From Corynebacterium amycolatum (lineage in GTDB: Bacteria; Actinomycetota; Actinomycetes; Mycobacteriales; Mycobacteriaceae), in the NCBI RefSeq assembly GCF_049243625.1, contig NZ_CP046975.1: a stretch of DNA of 32,000 bases. The stretch is one strand, 5' to 3'. The notes beneath the pieces are model-generated. The model did no database searches. It saw only the letters and a program-made list of their open reading frames with translations, and was not told where the DNA came from. This document shows positions 16,108 through 24,551 of this stretch, in pieces; the first letter of the stretch is position 1; each line of letters starts with the position of its first letter. Made by a program: the position numbers and the translations under genes.

Positions 16108-16108
<1 letters not shown>
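14906..16108 (-). CDS. thiF: ThiF/MoeZ-type adenylyltransferase-sulfurtransferase (E1-like domain plus C-terminal rhodanese domain)
   Basis: Rossmann motif VLVIGAGGLGSP. C-terminal rhodanese active-site loop HCHSGARS. The ATG overlaps the thiG stop (TAATG at 16106-16110). It is the last gene of the thiO-S-G-F cluster. Confidence 0.8.
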
Positions 16109-17216
<1,108 letters not shown>

Positions 17217-17229
17217 AAGCGAGCCTCCT

Positions 17230-18414
17230 CTAGTCGCTGAAGCGGAATGGATCGACGGCGGAAAGAAGCGCCGGGTCGTTATCATTTTCTCGACCGGCGA
17301 CGACATCGGCGGTGAGCTTGGAACCGATAGCCGTAAGCAGAATGCCGTGGCGGAAGTAGCCGGTGGACACGGTCAGTCCTGGAGCCACGCGGCCAATCAT
17401 GGGGACATCGTCCGGGGAACCCGGCCGGGCGCGGGCGGTCATCTCGTAGATTTCGCAGTCGAGAATGCCGGGCACCAGGCGGTATGCGTCGCGGAGTAGC
17501 TGGTGGACTCCTTCGGCGGAGACACCGGTCAGGTCATCTTCACGCGAGGTAGCGCCGAGCACGACGGTGCCGTCAGCACGCGGGACGATATAAACCGGAC
17601 GCCCCTGAACCACACCGCGAATAGTGCGGGTGACCAGCGGCCGCAGGCGCTCCGGTACACGCAGACGCAGCACATCCCCATAGACCGGGCGCAGTGGCAG
17701 ATTCAGATTCTCCGGCAGCCCGGTGATATCGGCAGTGTTCAACCCCGCAGCCAGAACGACCTCATCGGCGAGGTAATCATTTCCGTCCGCACCGCCCAGA
17801 CCGATGGCGCGGTCGGAAGCGTAGATAACCTCTTGCGCGCGGGTGCGGATGACACGGTCTCCCAGGATGGTCAGCAGTGCGTCGGCGAGCAGACGCGGAT
17901 TGACCTGGTGATCTCCTGGAATATCCACCGCACCAACACAACCCGGCCCCAGTGCCGGCTCGGCCCGGCGCGCTTCGGTGGCGGTAATGCGGTTGATCTC
18001 CATACCCATGTCATGCTGCAACTCAACGAGCTCGCTAAGGGTCTGCCGGTCGGCGGCATCACCCGCACAAACAAACGTGGAATTCTCGATGTAGCCGACA
18101 TCGTGGCCTGATTCCTCAGCGATGGCCTGGGCAAAGTCGCGGTAGAGCTTGCCCGACTCAACCATCAGCGGATACAGCGTCGGCTGATCCCACACGACTT
18201 CGGCCACCGGCGCCAGCATGCCAGCTGCGGCGAAAGTTGCGCCGGAAACGGGCTCGGCATCGAGGACGGTCACATCGAATCCCCGGCGAAGTAGTCTCCA
18301 TGCCGTCGCCAAGCCAATAATGCCCGCACCTGCGATAACAACGCTTGACGACGTATCCCCTGTGCCACCCTCACCTATCGAGGCAGCACCCATAGCGGCA
18401 GCATTCACTGCCAT
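17230..18414 (-). CDS. thiO: glycine oxidase
   Basis: FAD dinucleotide-binding motif VVIAGAGIIGLATAW near the N-terminus. I place the start at ATG 18414 (MAVNAAAMGAAS..., 394 aa), immediately after GGAGGGAGGA. The listed 483-aa ORF runs on through the riboswitch into the thiE promoter region. Confidence 0.85.
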   Translation of the reverse strand: MAVNAAAMGAASIGEGGTGDTSSSVVIAGAGIIGLATAWRLLRRGFDVTVLDAEPVSGATFAAAGMLAPVAEVVWDQPTLYPLMVESGKLYRDFAQAIAEESGHDVGYIENSTFVCAGDAADRQTLSELVELQHDMGMEINRITATEARRAEPALGPGCVGAVDIPGDHQVNPRLLADALLTILGDRVIRTRAQEVIYASDRAIGLGGADGNDYLADEVVLAAGLNTADITGLPENLNLPLRPVYGDVLRLRVPERLRPLVTRTIRGVVQGRPVYIVPRADGTVVLGATSREDDLTGVSAEGVHQLLRDAYRLVPGILDCEIYEMTARARPGSPDDVPMIGRVAPGLTVSTGYFRHGILLTAIGSKLTADVVAGRENDNDPALLSAVDPFRFSD

Positions 18415-18530
18415 TCCTCCCTCCGGCGGCATAACCCGCATCAGGTAAAAGCGGTCGGCGTTATTCGCCCTCTCAGCCAGCGGCATCTCATCGATGCCGA
18501 GTACGGCTCCCGCGGAACGTAGTACTCCCC
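18415..18530 (-). promoter_or_regulatory. TPP (thi-box) riboswitch controlling thiO-thiS-thiG-thiF
   Basis: The minus-strand RNA reads GCGGGAGCCGUACU-CGGCAUC-GAUGA-GAUGCCG-CUGG-CUGAGA-GGGCGAAUAACGCCG-ACCGC-UUUU-ACCUGAU-GCGGGUUAUGCCGCC-GGAGGGAGGA-AUG. The thi-box hallmarks are present: CUGAGA, ACCUGAU and GGGUUAUGCCGCC..GGAGGGA. There is a perfect 7-bp P3-like hairpin. The 3' end contains the thiO SD. The outer boundary is approximate. Confidence 0.8.
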
Positions 18531-18593
18531 CATCATATGACTTCCCGATGGCCGCCACTACACCGCATCCTCGACCTCGCCTAACATGGGGAC

Positions 18594-19352
18594 ATGAACG
18601 CCTCATCAGCTGCCACTCGCACAACACGACGCGCCCTGCTTGCCGATGCCCGTCTGTACCTCTGCACCGACTCGCGTGCATCCCGCGGTGATCTGCGCGA
18701 ATTTCTGCACGCCTGTTACGAAGGCGGCACCGACATCATCCAGCTGCGCGACAAGAAAGTCGACACTCGCGACGAGATTGCCGCCGTGGAGATCCTCGCC
18801 GAGGTCGCCGCTGAACACGGCAAGCTCTTCGCCGTCAATGACCGCGCCGACATTGCCGCGCTGACCGGCGCAGACATTCTGCATGTGGGCCAGGAAGACC
18901 TCACGACCGAGCAGGCCCGCCAGATCGTTGGCCCCGAGGTTCTCATCGGCCGATCCAACCGAAATCTGGACATGTTCGCCGCCTCACTTGCCGACGATGG
19001 CATCGATTACGCGGTAATCGGCCCGGTGTATGCCACCCCGACGAAGCCCGACCGTCAGCCCGTCGGAGTCGAGATGGTTCATGAAGCTGCGGCACTGGTG
19101 CGGAGAGTGCGGGCACAGGGATCAGCGGAGTCCCACCAGGATTCCGTGGCCGATATTGTGCGCCCACACGACCGCGGCGCAAGTGACCCCGTCAAGCCAT
19201 GGTGGGCAATTGGCGGTATCAACGCCGAGACCGCCAATGCGGTTATCGCCGCTGGTGCGGAGCGCATTGTGGTGGTTCGCGCACTGACCGAGGCAGAAAA
19301 TCCGGAAGAGGCAGCTCGTGCCCTGCGCGCTGCGGTTACGAACGGTCGCTGA
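18594..19352 (+). CDS. thiE: thiamine-phosphate synthase
   Basis: Motifs LYLCTD, DIIQLRDK, IGPVYATPTKP and WWAIGGIN. Divergent from thiO. TAACAT lies 6 nt upstream of the ATG and there is no SD, so the mRNA may be leaderless. Confidence 0.85.
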   Translation: MNASSAATRTTRRALLADARLYLCTDSRASRGDLREFLHACYEGGTDIIQLRDKKVDTRDEIAAVEILAEVAAEHGKLFAVNDRADIAALTGADILHVGQEDLTTEQARQIVGPEVLIGRSNRNLDMFAASLADDGIDYAVIGPVYATPTKPDRQPVGVEMVHEAAALVRRVRAQGSAESHQDSVADIVRPHDRGASDPVKPWWAIGGINAETANAVIAAGAERIVVVRALTEAENPEEAARALRAAVTNGR

Positions 19353-21765: not shown

Positions 21766-21952
21766 CGGAACGTTAGTCCTCGTGGCCAGCGATGTCGAGG
21801 GGAATGCTGATATTCCGTCTCTGCATATGCCGGGACTTAGCGGGGAGCTGCTTTACGCCCCCAGACACCGTTGCGATATCCCGTACACATTTCGCGCCCC
21901 ATCCCCGCCCCCACACCCCACCCCGCTTTGGCTACTACGGAAACCTTGAGTT

Positions 21953-22027
21953 ATGGTCAGATTCATGATGACACCCCTGATGAACACACTCGCGCCGTGC
22001 GGCGCACAGTGGTGGTGGCTCGCCTAA
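21953..22027 (+). CDS. trpL: tryptophan operon-type leader peptide (MVRFMMTPLMNTLAPCGAQWWWLA)
   Basis: Short ORF absent from the track because it is under 60 aa. Three consecutive TGG codons lie at 22010-22018, 2 codons before the stop TAA (22025-22027). An in-frame TGA at 21947 makes ATG 21953 the first possible start; ATG 21965/21968 are alternatives. It is followed by mutually exclusive hairpins and a terminator upstream of trpB. Confidence 0.6.
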   Translation: MVRFMMTPLMNTLAPCGAQWWWLA

Positions 22028-22083
22028 GTCCGCGAGCAACGTCACGTCATCTCATTAATGTCGACGGCAAACCCGTCAAGTAC

Positions 22084-22123
22084 GAGCTCGCAAGAAGATA
22101 AATCTGGCGGGCTCTTTTCTTTT
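22084..22123 (+). terminator. attenuator terminator (3:4 hairpin plus U-tract) upstream of trpB
   Basis: GAGCTCGC (22084-22091) pairs with GCGGGCTC (22107-22114), including one G-U pair. Three further inner pairs follow a 1x1 mismatch. TTTTCTTTT follows at 22115-22123. Segment 3 (GCTCGC, 22086-22091) is identical to segment 1 (22018-22023). Both are complementary to segment 2 (GCGAGC, 22032-22037). Confidence 0.65.
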
Positions 22124-22187
22124 ATCGGTTCGGCGAAGAGAACCAGGGCCCGCTGAAATAAACAACAGCAACGAAAGGCTCTCTTCA

Positions 22188-23513
22188 ATGACTGATTACA
22201 ACCCCAGCGCGGATGCCATCGCCAAGGCTTCAGCACCGACTGCAACCAGGGTGCCGTCGGCAAGCGTTAACGGCGCGGGCGAGGTGCGCGAAACCCTCTT
22301 GCCTGCATTTTTCGGTCGCTTCGGTGGACAGGAAGTGCCGGAGTTCCTGCTGCCAGCACTCGATGAGCTGGAAGCGGCTTACATCGAGGCGATGAGCGAT
22401 CCGGAGTTCCAGCGCGAGCTGGAAGAACTGCGTCGCGATTTCCTCGGCCGCGCAACCCCGCTGTTCGAATGCCGACGTCTATCCACGCCGAACACGACGA
22501 TTGTGCTCAAGCGCGAGGACTTGAACCACGGCGGCGCGCACAAGGGCAACAACGTGGTCGGCCAGGCGCTGCTGGCAAAGCGCATGGGAAAAACCCGTCT
22601 CATTGCTGAGACGGGTGCAGGCCAGCACGGCACGGCCACCGCGATGGCCGCAGCGCTGCTGGGACTTGAGTGCGAGATTTACATGGGCGCGCACGATGTC
22701 GCCCGCCAGCACCCCAATGTCGAGCGCATGGAGCTCATGGGCGCGAAGGTCGTTCCCGTCACCACCGGCGAGGCCGGTTTGAAGGATGCTATTGACGAGG
22801 CACTGGTCGAGTGGAGCAAGACTCTCGACTCCACTTTCTACCTGCTGGGCACAGCCGCCGGGCCGCACCCATTCCCCACTATCGTGCGTGAATTCCAGCA
22901 GGTCATCTCGGAGGAGTCACGCAGTCAGATGGTCGAGCGTTACGGCAAGCTTCCCGACGCTGTCATCGCAGCCGTCGGTGGCGGCTCCAACGCCATTGGC
23001 GCATTTGCTAACTACATCGACGACTCCGATGTCGCCCTCATTGGCGTCGAGCCTGCAGGTGAGGGACTCGACACCGATCGTCACGGGGCGCCCATCAATG
23101 GGGGCAAGACTGGTGTCCTTCACGGCATGCGCTCATTTGTCATGCTTTCCGACGACGGCGAGGTGTTGCCATCGCACTCCATCTCGGCGGGCTTGGATTA
23201 CCCGTCCGTTGGCCCGGAGCACGGCATGCTGAAGGAGAATGGCCGCGCCAGCTATGTCGGAATTACCGACGAGGAGGCGCTGGAAGCGTTCCAGCTGCTC
23301 AGCCGCATGGAGGGCATTATTCCGGCGATGGAATCCTCGCATGCGCTGGCGCAGGCCATTAAAATTACGCGACTCCGTGAAACCTACCCTGCCGCTGGTA
23401 GCGAGTTCGGGCTGCCGGTTCACGAAGGCGATGAGCCTTTGCTGTTGCTCGTGAACCTGTCGGGTCGCGGTGATAAGGATATGGAGCAGGTCCGGGAGTT
23501 CCTGAACCAGTAG
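22188..23513 (+). CDS. trpB: tryptophan synthase beta chain (canonical TrpB1 type), not adjacent to trpA
   Basis: 441 aa with [16 protein letters not shown], the PLP-lysine motif [46 protein letters not shown] and [14 protein letters not shown] lies 9 nt upstream of the ATG. Confidence 0.9.
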
Positions 23514-23579
23514 GAATAACCAGTAGGGATTGCTTCCCCACTAGCTGCCTAGCAGGAATCGGACCAAAGCTAATTCTTG

Positions 23580-23735
23580 TTAGGCAGCACGGCGATCGTC
23601 AGCGGCGATGCCCTGCTTCGGGTTCGCCTCCACGATGGCTTCGGCAAGCAGCGATGCCAGCGCATCCTGCTTGGATTCCTTGCCGTCCTGGAAAATCGGG
23701 GACACAGTATCCATAATCTCGTTGAATGCGTTCAT
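23580..23735 (-). CDS. small hypothetical protein, 51 aa (MNAFNEIMDTVSPIFQDGKESKQDALASLLAEAIVEANPKQGIAADDRRAA)
   Basis: Not in the ORF track because it is under 60 aa. ATG at 23735 is preceded by AAGAGAGGTGACCTCTG, a GAGAGGTG SD at about 7-nt spacing. Third codon positions are mostly G/C, as in neighbouring genes. The listed + strand ORF 23577..23765 is its antisense shadow. I recognise no family. Confidence 0.5.
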   Translation of the reverse strand: MNAFNEIMDTVSPIFQDGKESKQDALASLLAEAIVEANPKQGIAADDRRAA

Positions 23736-24495
23736 CAGAGGTCACCTCTCTTAAGATCTCTTTGATCTTTATTGTTGGACTTCTCCAACCGATTCTTTGC
23801 GATTCAGCAGTTGAAACAATGTTTCATCGAACCGTTTGGAACTTATGACTTGCAACCGTAGACGACAACACAAGACCTGGCAAGCACTAAACTTTATTTT
23901 TAGTTAACCGTTTGTTAACTTTTGGACACTTTTTAGCTCAGACACTGAGCCACAAACAGTGCCCCTCAACGCCGCCCCATACCTCGCTTTACTGCCCTTG
24001 ATAACCGCTTCAAAATCACGCTCTTTTACACAGCCGAAAGCCAGGCGCGAAAGTCTCTTTTGGCCGAACATAAACTATCCCCACTGAAAGCGCTTGTAAC
24101 CATCGTTGAATGTGGATTACACACCACACTCAATCGTCACCCCGCGCACGAATAGCCACCAGCTTCCCAGGGGTCCACCCCAGCGCCAGTTAAAGAAAAA
24201 GAACCCACTGCCAGCATAAATAGCCCACCAACAGAGCTGCCGACCGCCGAAACCACTACCGTGAAGGCCATCCCACCCCTCTATCAACTCAACCCTAGCC
24301 TCGCTGGATGTGGCCGCAGCCACGAAGCCTTCAATCTGAGGCAGTTTTTCCGCCTTTACGGCGAACGAGCAGTCAGGAAAACAGAGCCCCAACGCCTCCC
24401 TCCCAAAACTGCCCCAACATCAGCCCAGCAAGCGGTTACCGGCACAGGATTTAAAGCAGCGATTCGTCCACCGAGCCCCTATCTCAACCGACCTC

Positions 24496-24516
24496 AAAAA
24501 CACCCCTGAAAGGGTG
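24496..24516 (-). terminator. rho-independent terminator after the aminotransferase gene
   Basis: The minus-strand RNA reads CACCC-UUUCAG-GGGUG followed by UUUUU (plus-strand A-run 24496-24500). It lies about 36 nt downstream of the stop at 24552. Confidence 0.6.
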
Positions 24517-24551
24517 AGGTAAATCACATCGCAAACGTCGCTAACGGCCGC

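Follow-up and report, generated by a model that had tools for sequence, protein, structure and literature searches.

Upstream of an isolated trpB gene in Corynebacterium amycolatum lies a leader that we read as a working ribosome-mediated attenuator, which would sense charged tRNA-Trp and control one gene, an orphan and probably TrpA-independent β subunit of tryptophan synthase. We put the probability of this reading at roughly 0.7. The analysis concerns a 32,000-nucleotide stretch of contig NZ_CP046975.1 (assembly GCF_049243625.1), referred to here as the window, for which an earlier note made from the letters of the DNA had proposed a leader-peptide attenuator before a stand-alone trpB. Judged from sequence analysis, we rate the element as real and its function as that of a largely classical attenuator.

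Conserved leader and its alternative folds

The decisive evidence that the leader is not a chance arrangement is its conservation. The earlier note had named as a test the presence in relatives of the open reading frame (ORF) with tandem tryptophan codons and of the hairpins around it, and all of these recur before trpB in 16 other loci. The resulting set of 17 loci spans two orders and comprises the window, Corynebacterium loci of the C. amycolatum/C. lactis group (L001-L005), loci from the Actinomycetaceae genera Schaalia, Actinomyces and Pauljensenia (L007-L011 and L013), whose TrpBs are 71-74% identical to that of the window, and five loci found through look-ups of protein hits (L201-L205). 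A MAFFT alignment of 12 leaders has a mean column identity of 52%, yet its Trp codons are invariant, as are the cores of segments 1-4. Between the window and C. lactis the pairing cores, the Trp codons and the U-tract are unchanged even though dS between the trpB genes is 0.9. The elements of the leader, and the gene behind it, are listed below; P0 denotes a helix that appears in minimum free energy (MFE) folds.

21928-21933, +: -35-like hexamer TTGGCT, 18 nt 5' of the -10 box, conserved as GCTTTGGC in L001-L004; putative promoter element
21947-21957, +: extended -10-like box TGAGT-TATGGT, ending 7 nt 5' of the conserved leader start
21965-22027, +: leader ORF MMTPLMNTLAPCGAQWWWLA with its stop codon; the Corynebacterium and Actinomycetaceae loci share the peptide form M(M)T...WWWL, 12-20 residues long
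21965-21970, +: AUGAUG, the 5' strand of helix P0; its partner in MFE folds is CGUCAU at 22045-22050
22010-22018, +: three tandem Trp codons, the putative sensing site; WWW in 15 of 17 loci, the exceptions being L008 (WWR) and L201 (WW)
22017-22023, +: segment 1, GGCTCGC (GCTCGC at 22018-22023), overlapping the last Trp codon and the Leu and Ala codons
22032-22037, +: segment 2, GCGAGC, partner of segment 1 or segment 3; invariant in the 12 aligned sequences
22045-22050, +: 3' strand of helix P0, CGUCAU, just past segment 2, closing a large domain around 1:2
22063-22077, +: small hairpin GACGGCAAACCCGTC inside the 2:3 loop, in Corynebacterium leaders only
22084-22091, +: segment 3, GAGCTCGC (GCTCGC at 22086-22091), serving as 3' arm in the antiterminator and as 5' arm in the terminator
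22107-22114, +: segment 4, GCGGGCTC, 3' arm of the terminator, from 3:4 pairing and folding energy
22115-22123, +: U-tract TTTTCTTTT of the intrinsic terminator, read from the sequence
22145-22153, +: segment 5, AGGGCCCGC, past the terminator and complementary to segment 4
22173-22178, +: Shine-Dalgarno (SD)-like GAAAGG of trpB; GAAAGG is kept in L001-L004
22188-23513, +: trpB, 441 amino acids, TrpB1-type (TIGR00263, 555.8 bits against a cut-off of 392.45)

The three tandem TGG codons (TGGTGGTGG) at 22010-22018 can be read directly from the sequence; where 0.32 copies of this string would be expected, the window has 3, of which the one in the leader is the sole intergenic copy. The earlier note had placed these codons correctly in an ORF at 21953-22027, the start of which needs to be moved. 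The ATG at 21953 is unconserved in L002-L005 and sits within a conserved TAnnnT -10-like box, and the conserved start, ATGATGAC at 21965, opens a frame of 20 codons in which the WWW motif makes up codons 16-18. The leader peptides of the Actinomycetaceae share the M(M)T...WWWL form and have 12-18 residues. A TAnnnT hexamer lies 6-7 nt 5' of the conserved start codon in 12 of 12 loci examined, and in none of these 12 is there an SD sequence before the leader AUG. Given a TAnnnT box right before the conserved start, transcription probably begins at or next to the AUG at 21965, and the leader mRNA would then be leaderless. By the pattern of corynebacterial promoters, the TGAGT-TATGGT box, preceded by TTGGCT, resembles an extended -10 element. 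The ilvB gene of C. diphtheriae offers a documented case of a leader-peptide mRNA that is leaderless (PMC5784534).

The coordinates previously given for the segments, the terminator hairpin and the U-tract all agree with the sequence, as does the spacing of 65 nt from the attenuator to a canonical trpB. The terminator consists of an 8-bp GC-rich stem followed by UUUUCUUUU; it folds at -16.1 kcal/mol (z = -3.6), with 0 of 200 shuffles folding as well, and is present in the MFE structure of the whole leader. A simple consensus terminator scanner with a loop limit of 3-8 did not detect it, because its loop of 15 nt exceeds that limit. Segment 2 begins 5 nt past the leader stop codon and, from the size of a ribosome footprint, would be covered by a ribosome standing on that codon (22025-22027).

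Each leader was folded in three ways, once as free RNA and once for each of two ribosome positions, on the stop codon or stalled on the second of the Trp codons, with a downstream footprint of ~13 nt masked. In these constrained folds, 1:2 accompanies the 3:4 terminator when the RNA is free or the ribosome has come to the stop codon, and stalling produces 2:3 in the window as well as in L001, L002, L005, L008, L009, L011 and L013, so that the 1:2 / 2:3 / 3:4 layout first proposed for this leader is reproduced as a predicted switch in the window and in most relatives. The geometry is that of leader-peptide attenuators, in that a ribosome stalled on the Trp codons masks segment 1 only, and segment 2 is masked by one that has moved on to the stop codon. 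The 2:3 domain of the window has a folding energy of -18.1 kcal/mol, and by duplex energy the complementarity of segments 2 and 3 exceeds that of dinucleotide shuffles in all 12 sequences (p <= 0.042).

Paired positions are maintained across the 12-leader alignment. The terminator-state structure (P0, 1:2 and 3:4) is 88.7% paired, compared with 29-50% in slid controls, and contains 4 pairs with compensatory changes, a count reached in just 5 of 500 shuffles. Helix 1:2 is 87% paired and its pair 64/87 covaries as UA/UG/CG; a compensatory change in this helix offsets the substitution in L008, the WWR variant, where the third UGG has become CGG. Helix 3:4 is 90.7% paired, with two compensatory pairs, and helix 2:3 is 91.7% paired and invariant. 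Such invariance is expected because these segments must fit two partners, and the same multi-partner invariance has been noted for other actinobacterial trp attenuators (PMC1262725); it also gives formal covariation limited power here.

A covariance-model search of the window against Rfam at gathering thresholds returned no family other than a TPP riboswitch elsewhere, and at E <= 10 over 21850-22260 it gave chance-level matches only; membership of the leader in RF00513 (Trp_leader) or another known RNA family is rejected on these searches. A scan of metagenomes for the pattern TGGTGGTGGCTC-N6-12-GCGAGC gave 120 matches, most of them chance occurrences inside coding sequence and about 17 of them genuine trp-operon leaders on Actinomyces-like contigs.

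The four-segment layout stands, and to it we add two conserved pairings that the earlier note did not contain. Helix P0 has 88% of its cells paired over 12 sequences, and an equivalent helix of different sequence is found in every lineage; sequence by sequence it is weak (p 0.008-0.5, mostly non-significant), and we retain it as a recurrent feature only. Segment 5 follows the terminator in 16 of 17 leaders despite diverged surroundings, taking the form GGGCCCGCC in the Actinomycetaceae. The 4:5 duplex is better than shuffles in 11 of 12 sequences (p <= 0.012), and the 4:5 hairpin of the window, at -24.5 kcal/mol with 0 of 200 shuffles as good, forms in the stalled-ribosome folds. Because segment 5 is transcribed too late to affect termination, any role must come afterwards. 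In L001-L003 the U-tract is directly followed by a 16-nt tandem duplication (CTTTTATCGGTTCGAGA CTTTTATCGGTTCGAC; ~5920-5952 in L001), which is absent from the window (22124-22140) and which lengthens the loop of the 4:5 hairpin and leaves both of its arms untouched.

The orphan trpB and its clade

The protein encoded behind the leader scores 504 bits against E. coli TrpB (2dh5) and 438 bits against the M. tuberculosis enzyme, falls below the cut-offs of TrpB2-like models in profile scoring, and retains the catalytic residues K87, E109 and D305, with R141 and K167 also conserved. It is 99% identical to the protein of C. amycolatum SK46 and 85-97% identical to those of relatives, C. lactis among them. 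Purifying selection on the gene is strong: dN/dS is 0.035-0.10 at dS of up to 0.9.

That the window holds neither trpA nor any other trp gene, as had been claimed, is borne out by two kinds of search. A profile built from 38 TrpAs encoded beside trpB elsewhere found no TrpA when run against the window and L001-L013 translated in all six frames, its only matches in the window being weak TIM-barrel similarities to an ORF at 16108-17043. Likewise, tblastn with TrpE, TrpG, TrpD, TrpC-TrpB and TrpA from Actinomyces and Corynebacterium-like contigs (E <= 1) recovered trpB itself and nothing else in the window and its stand-alone relatives. The 22 kb before trpB and the 8.5 kb after it are free of other trp-related sequence. 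At the level of the species, a pangenome survey of skin corynebacteria reports the KEGG tryptophan module M00023 as absent from all C. amycolatum isolates (PMC12542688); its supplementary file contains no per-gene trp table.

The earlier note had raised the concern that TrpB1 enzymes depend on TrpA, and this concern is largely answered by the residues that the clade has replaced. We compared 38 TrpA-linked TrpBs with 12 leader-linked TrpBs, using E. coli numbering. βArg175 is present in all 38 TrpA-linked proteins and in none of the 12 leader-linked ones, which have Val or Glu instead (Val in the window), and βAsn171 is Asp in all 12 leader-linked proteins, that of the window included. Both residues lie in helix βH6 of the COMM domain, at the α/β interface (PMC8187860). 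Further differences between the two sets fall at positions 56, 74, 165, 176 and 293. On L114, an Actinomyces-like contig, and on L140, a TrpC-TrpB fusion that precedes trpA keeps Asn171 and Arg175, and the solo-type TrpB paralog on L114 is without this pair, as are other members of the clade. From this loss of α-contact residues we argue that the clade may work without TrpA. The whole leader-proximal clade has replaced βArg175 and mostly βAsn171 (residues ~205-215 of the window protein), and two Corynebacterium-like proteins, P0112 and P0118, have also lost βLys167, reading LSDA for LKDA.

In a large protein database the closest sequences are those of C. amycolatum/lactis-type organisms; proteins of Actinomyces and Schaalia come next, at 69-76% identity. 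The clade is represented in the following four arrangements.

Schaalia L201 and L202: stand-alone trpB
A. gaoshouyii, A. marmotae and Actinomyces sp. Chiba101 (L203-L205): leader, then trpB heading trpB-trpE-trpG-trpD-trpC/B
Oral Actinomyces contigs L114, L128, L206 and L207: trpB, then leader, then trpE and following genes
L208: trpB overlapping trpE, behind leader MNTMKKLWWWRA

Since the clade elsewhere provides the first gene of leader-trpB-trpEGD(C/B) operons, the locus in the window is best read as an operon head, either retained after loss of the rest or acquired on its own. The core of its leader is near-identical to that of the Actinomycetaceae and unlike that of the C. diphtheriae-like leader, which hints at transfer of the module between Actinomycetaceae and the C. 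amycolatum group. Leaders with WWW-L and GGCGAGCC also head trpE-trpG-trpD-trpC/B-trpA operons of oral Actinomyces-like genomes, often between a solo-type trpB and trpE (L114 at 1788, L128 at 4744, L140 at 2562, L206 at ~4460 and L207 at ~4990, all of them metagenome or ENA contigs). In several of these leaders no U-tract follows the 3:4-like hairpin, but the trpE SD sequence is covered by CCUG...CAGG hairpins.

Proposed mechanism and competing explanations

In the mechanism that we favor, transcription would start at or next to the leader AUG at 21965, producing a leaderless mRNA on which a ribosome translates the 20-codon leader. With tRNA-Trp plentiful, the ribosome would reach the UAA at 22025 and cover segment 2, segments 3 and 4 would pair, and transcription would terminate at 22115-22123; with no ribosome loaded, P0 and 1:2 would fold together and termination would follow likewise. 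With tRNA-Trp scarce, a ribosome stalled on UGG UGG UGG would hold segment 1, allowing 2:3 to form in place of the terminator and trpB to be transcribed. The enzyme would then condense environmental indole and serine to tryptophan, on demand only; as the host is reported, in the literature, to be without the rest of the pathway, these are the most likely substrates. The locus as a whole would descend from the retained or horizontally acquired head of an actinobacterial leader-trpB-trpEGD(C/B)A operon.

Several points weigh against this account. The stalled-state MFE structures of L003, L004 and L007 still hold the terminator, and the 2:3 antiterminator of the window has only 6 bp, whose pairs never vary and so lend no covariation support. 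Translation of the leader and a response of read-through to charged tRNA-Trp are predictions from the arrangement of the leader, and the evidence for a leaderless start is a single feature, the conserved TAnnnT box. Segment 5, conserved as it is, has no place in the classical attenuation model. The Actinomyces homologues L203-L205 form the 3:4 hairpin and have no U-tract behind it, which means that intrinsic termination cannot be the whole story for the leader family. The substitutions at the α interface are suggestive of stand-alone, TrpA-independent activity, and the absence of trpA, trpE, trpG, trpD, trpC and trpF is reported from 32 kb of DNA and one KEGG-module survey.

The place of segment 5 and the missing U-tracts bear on a possible extension of the classical mechanism, in which segments 4 and 5 and the ribosome-binding region of trpB would add a second, translational level of control. 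In the terminator state, segment 5 or adjoining sequence would pair with the SD sequence and block translation of read-through RNA, and in the antiterminator state the freed segment 4 would capture segment 5 and open the SD region. Consistent with such a relay, segment 5 is complementary to segment 4 and kept in nearly all leaders, stalled folds contain 2:3 plus 4:5 where the other states contain 3:4 plus a hairpin over the SD sequence, Actinomycetaceae leaders have CCUGAG...CUCAGGAG-type anti-SD hairpins that begin at the 3' end of segment 5, and L203-L205 would need an output other than intrinsic termination. By contrast, partition-function calculations put the mean unpaired probability of the SD sequence at 0.39 when 3:4 is formed and at 0.43 when segment 3 is sequestered, individual loci shifting both ways; the 5:6 duplex is not above shuffles in most sequences (p 0.02-0.41), and the window forms only a weak 5:6 hairpin (-9.4 kcal/mol, z = -1.3). 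As SD accessibility does not change consistently, we have demoted the translational relay to a minority hypothesis and regard it as doubtful. Somewhat less probable still is a broader version, in which a leaderless six-segment relay (P0, 1:2, 2:3, 3:4, 4:5 and 5:SD) would let one stalling event set both termination and trpB translation. In this version the controlled gene would come from a separate and so far unnamed clade of TrpB1 enzymes that work without TrpA. The clade would stand at the head of trp operons in actinobacteria and, in auxotrophs that live with a host, such as the C. amycolatum group and Schaalia, would persist by itself as a module for scavenging indole, perhaps having moved with its leader between Actinomycetaceae and Corynebacterium.

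Two further explanations question the isolation of the gene or the meaning of its regulation. If the pathway were dispersed, with trpA and trpEGDCF elsewhere in the genome, trpB would be an ordinary β subunit or an extra indole-rescue copy and the attenuator would act on one of several scattered genes. Split trp genes are common in bacteria (PMC2395257), some Actinomyces have a TrpB of this clade beside a complete operon with its own trpB, and the trp search covered 32 kb of the genome; nonetheless, we think this arrangement quite improbable, given that a clade without the βArg175 that is invariant in TrpA-linked TrpBs, and with Asp at βAsn171, is an unlikely partner for TrpA, and that the flanks of the gene are free of trp-related sequence. 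The earlier note had left the choice between such a dispersed pathway and Trp-responsive indole salvage, and we prefer salvage because M00023 is absent from all C. amycolatum isolates examined (PMC12542688). We consider it very improbable that the leader and trpB are a decaying leftover of the 5' end of a deleted trp operon with vestigial regulation. This idea draws on related Actinomyces and Corynebacterium-like contigs in which a TrpB of the clade heads leader-trpB-trpE-trpG-trpD-trpC/B, and on the ~1 kb of poorly conserved DNA past trpB, which is 85% identical to SK46 where the TrpB protein is 99% identical. It conflicts with an intact trpB that shows the low dN/dS values given above, with pairing cores, Trp codons and a U-tract that have stayed unchanged over the same divergence, with a stand-alone arrangement kept independently in Schaalia, and with tblastn searches that found no fragments of trpE, trpG, trpD, trpC or trpA nearby. 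A decayed trp remnant in the ~1 kb past trpB is ruled out by both tblastn and the TrpA profile.

Relation to known systems and other features of the window

The trpL leaders of E. coli and Salmonella (RF00513) and of C. glutamicum combine tandem Trp codons, mutually exclusive 1:2, 2:3 and 3:4 pairings, a 3:4 intrinsic terminator and a stop codon placed so that the ribosome masks segment 2. The leader of the window shares this logic. It differs in having three Trp codons where trpL has two, in being probably leaderless and having no SD sequence of its own, in the addition of P0 and the post-terminator segment 5, and in preceding one putative salvage gene and not a biosynthetic operon. In the B. 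subtilis trp leader, the TRAP protein binds free tryptophan and controls both a terminator and a hairpin that sequesters the trpE SD sequence. Were the relay true, the two systems would be alike in that one Trp-dependent RNA decision sets termination and translation of the first gene; they differ in that the sensor in the window would be a translating ribosome, and the translational arm of the window is unsupported by thermodynamic models.

Closer relatives are the operons of A. gaoshouyii, A. marmotae and Actinomyces sp. Chiba101, which have a homologous leader, MTTTRTRCWWWLP, with segments GGCUC / GGCGAGCC / GCUCGCC / GGCGGGC / GGGCCCGCC, and a TrpB of the same clade that is 71-72% identical to that of the window. 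In contrast to the window, the full pathway follows trpB in these operons, the 3:4 hairpin has no U-tract, and the leader is 13 codons long and has no inner hairpin. An attenuator before C. diphtheriae trpB1 was predicted in 2005 (PMC1262725; see also PMC5784534). The leader there, MTNMNAHNWWWRA, belongs to a genome with operons trpB1EDGC and trpB2A and, like that of the window, has three tandem Trp codons near its stop codon; it likewise lies directly before a trpB and is predicted to be a classical attenuator (PMC1262725, PMC5784534). In C. diphtheriae the rest of the pathway follows trpB1, whereas in the window trpB is the only gene. The L208 leader, MNTMKKLWWWRA, resembles the C. diphtheriae MTNMNAHNWWWRA and its TrpB, 67% identical to that of the window, is of the same clade, from which we infer the orthology of trpB1; the pairing core of the window, however, matches the Actinomycetaceae and not the C. 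diphtheriae-like leader.

Retention of a tryptophan synthase β reaction by an organism that has lost the pathway has precedents. Genital strains of Chlamydia trachomatis (trpRBA) are tryptophan auxotrophs that keep the β reaction for exogenous indole and express it in a Trp-responsive manner (PMC7755916), and an orphan trpB of Mycoplasma californicum has been proposed to salvage indole (PMC4081997). Chlamydia keeps trpA as an allosteric partner and uses the repressors TrpR and YtgR, where the window has a putative leader-peptide attenuator and a TrpB without the α-contact residues; for the Mycoplasma californicum gene no regulation is described, in contrast to the attenuator before the trpB of the window. 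The attenuation mechanism is textbook, and an attenuator before trpB is not new. What appears not to have been described together is the retention, by a reported Trp auxotroph, of an attenuator before an orphan trpB, a probable leaderless start, a post-terminator segment and a TrpB clade without α-contact residues.

If the reading of an attenuated salvage gene is true, textbook attenuation has been kept on a lone gene after loss of the pathway, and the leader is an independent, portable Trp-sensing module. It would predict that C. amycolatum, a frequent commensal of skin and mucosa and an opportunist, and some Schaalia live on the indole of their neighbors, and that indole use is switched on only in tryptophan limitation, for example when the host depletes tryptophan through IDO, an ecological logic like that of genital Chlamydia. 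A natural TrpB1 clade without the otherwise invariant βArg175 would be of interest for stand-alone TrpB biocatalysts, and segment 5, together with the homologues that have no U-tract, suggests a further layer of control in actinobacterial leaders.

Upstream of trpB and divergent from it lie trkH and trkA, and the upstream side also contains thiE and, preceded by a TPP riboswitch, a set made up of thiO, a presumed thiG and a thiF/moeB-like gene; downstream are an aminotransferase gene and purD and, farther on, purB, transporters and a PhoD-like phosphatase. The riboswitch (RF00059, 60.5 bits; 18401-18523, minus strand) sits inside the 5' part of a mechanically called ORF at 17230-18681. In that ORF the ThiO profile matches from residue 114 onward and no earlier, which places the real thiO start 3' of the riboswitch. 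Behind the riboswitch the order is thiO, the ORF at 16108-17043 (presumably thiG) and the ThiF/MoeB-like gene, with thiE divergent.

Between trpB and the aminotransferase gene (23514-24551), the window is 85% identical to SK46, and within this interval only the part around a small ORF is conserved out to C. lactis; GC content is 38-41% around 23714-23913, compared with 59% for the whole window. The small ORF, MNAFNEIMDTVSPIFQDGKESKQDALASLLAEAIVEANPKQGIAADDRRAA (23580-23735, minus strand), has 51 codons, is convergent with trpB and is found in L001-L005, and searches of it against Pfam and NCBIfam gave no match. L002 (NZ_JVVM01000022.1) is labelled Corynebacterium vitaeruminis, yet its trpB locus shows 96% protein identity to and synteny with C. 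amycolatum, and its species label may be wrong. The region 5' of the 51-codon ORF (23736-23960) is also conserved and contains a hairpin, TTGGACTTCTCCAA, and a palindrome, GTTAAC-N6-GTTAAC (~23903-23920), which looks like a candidate operator.

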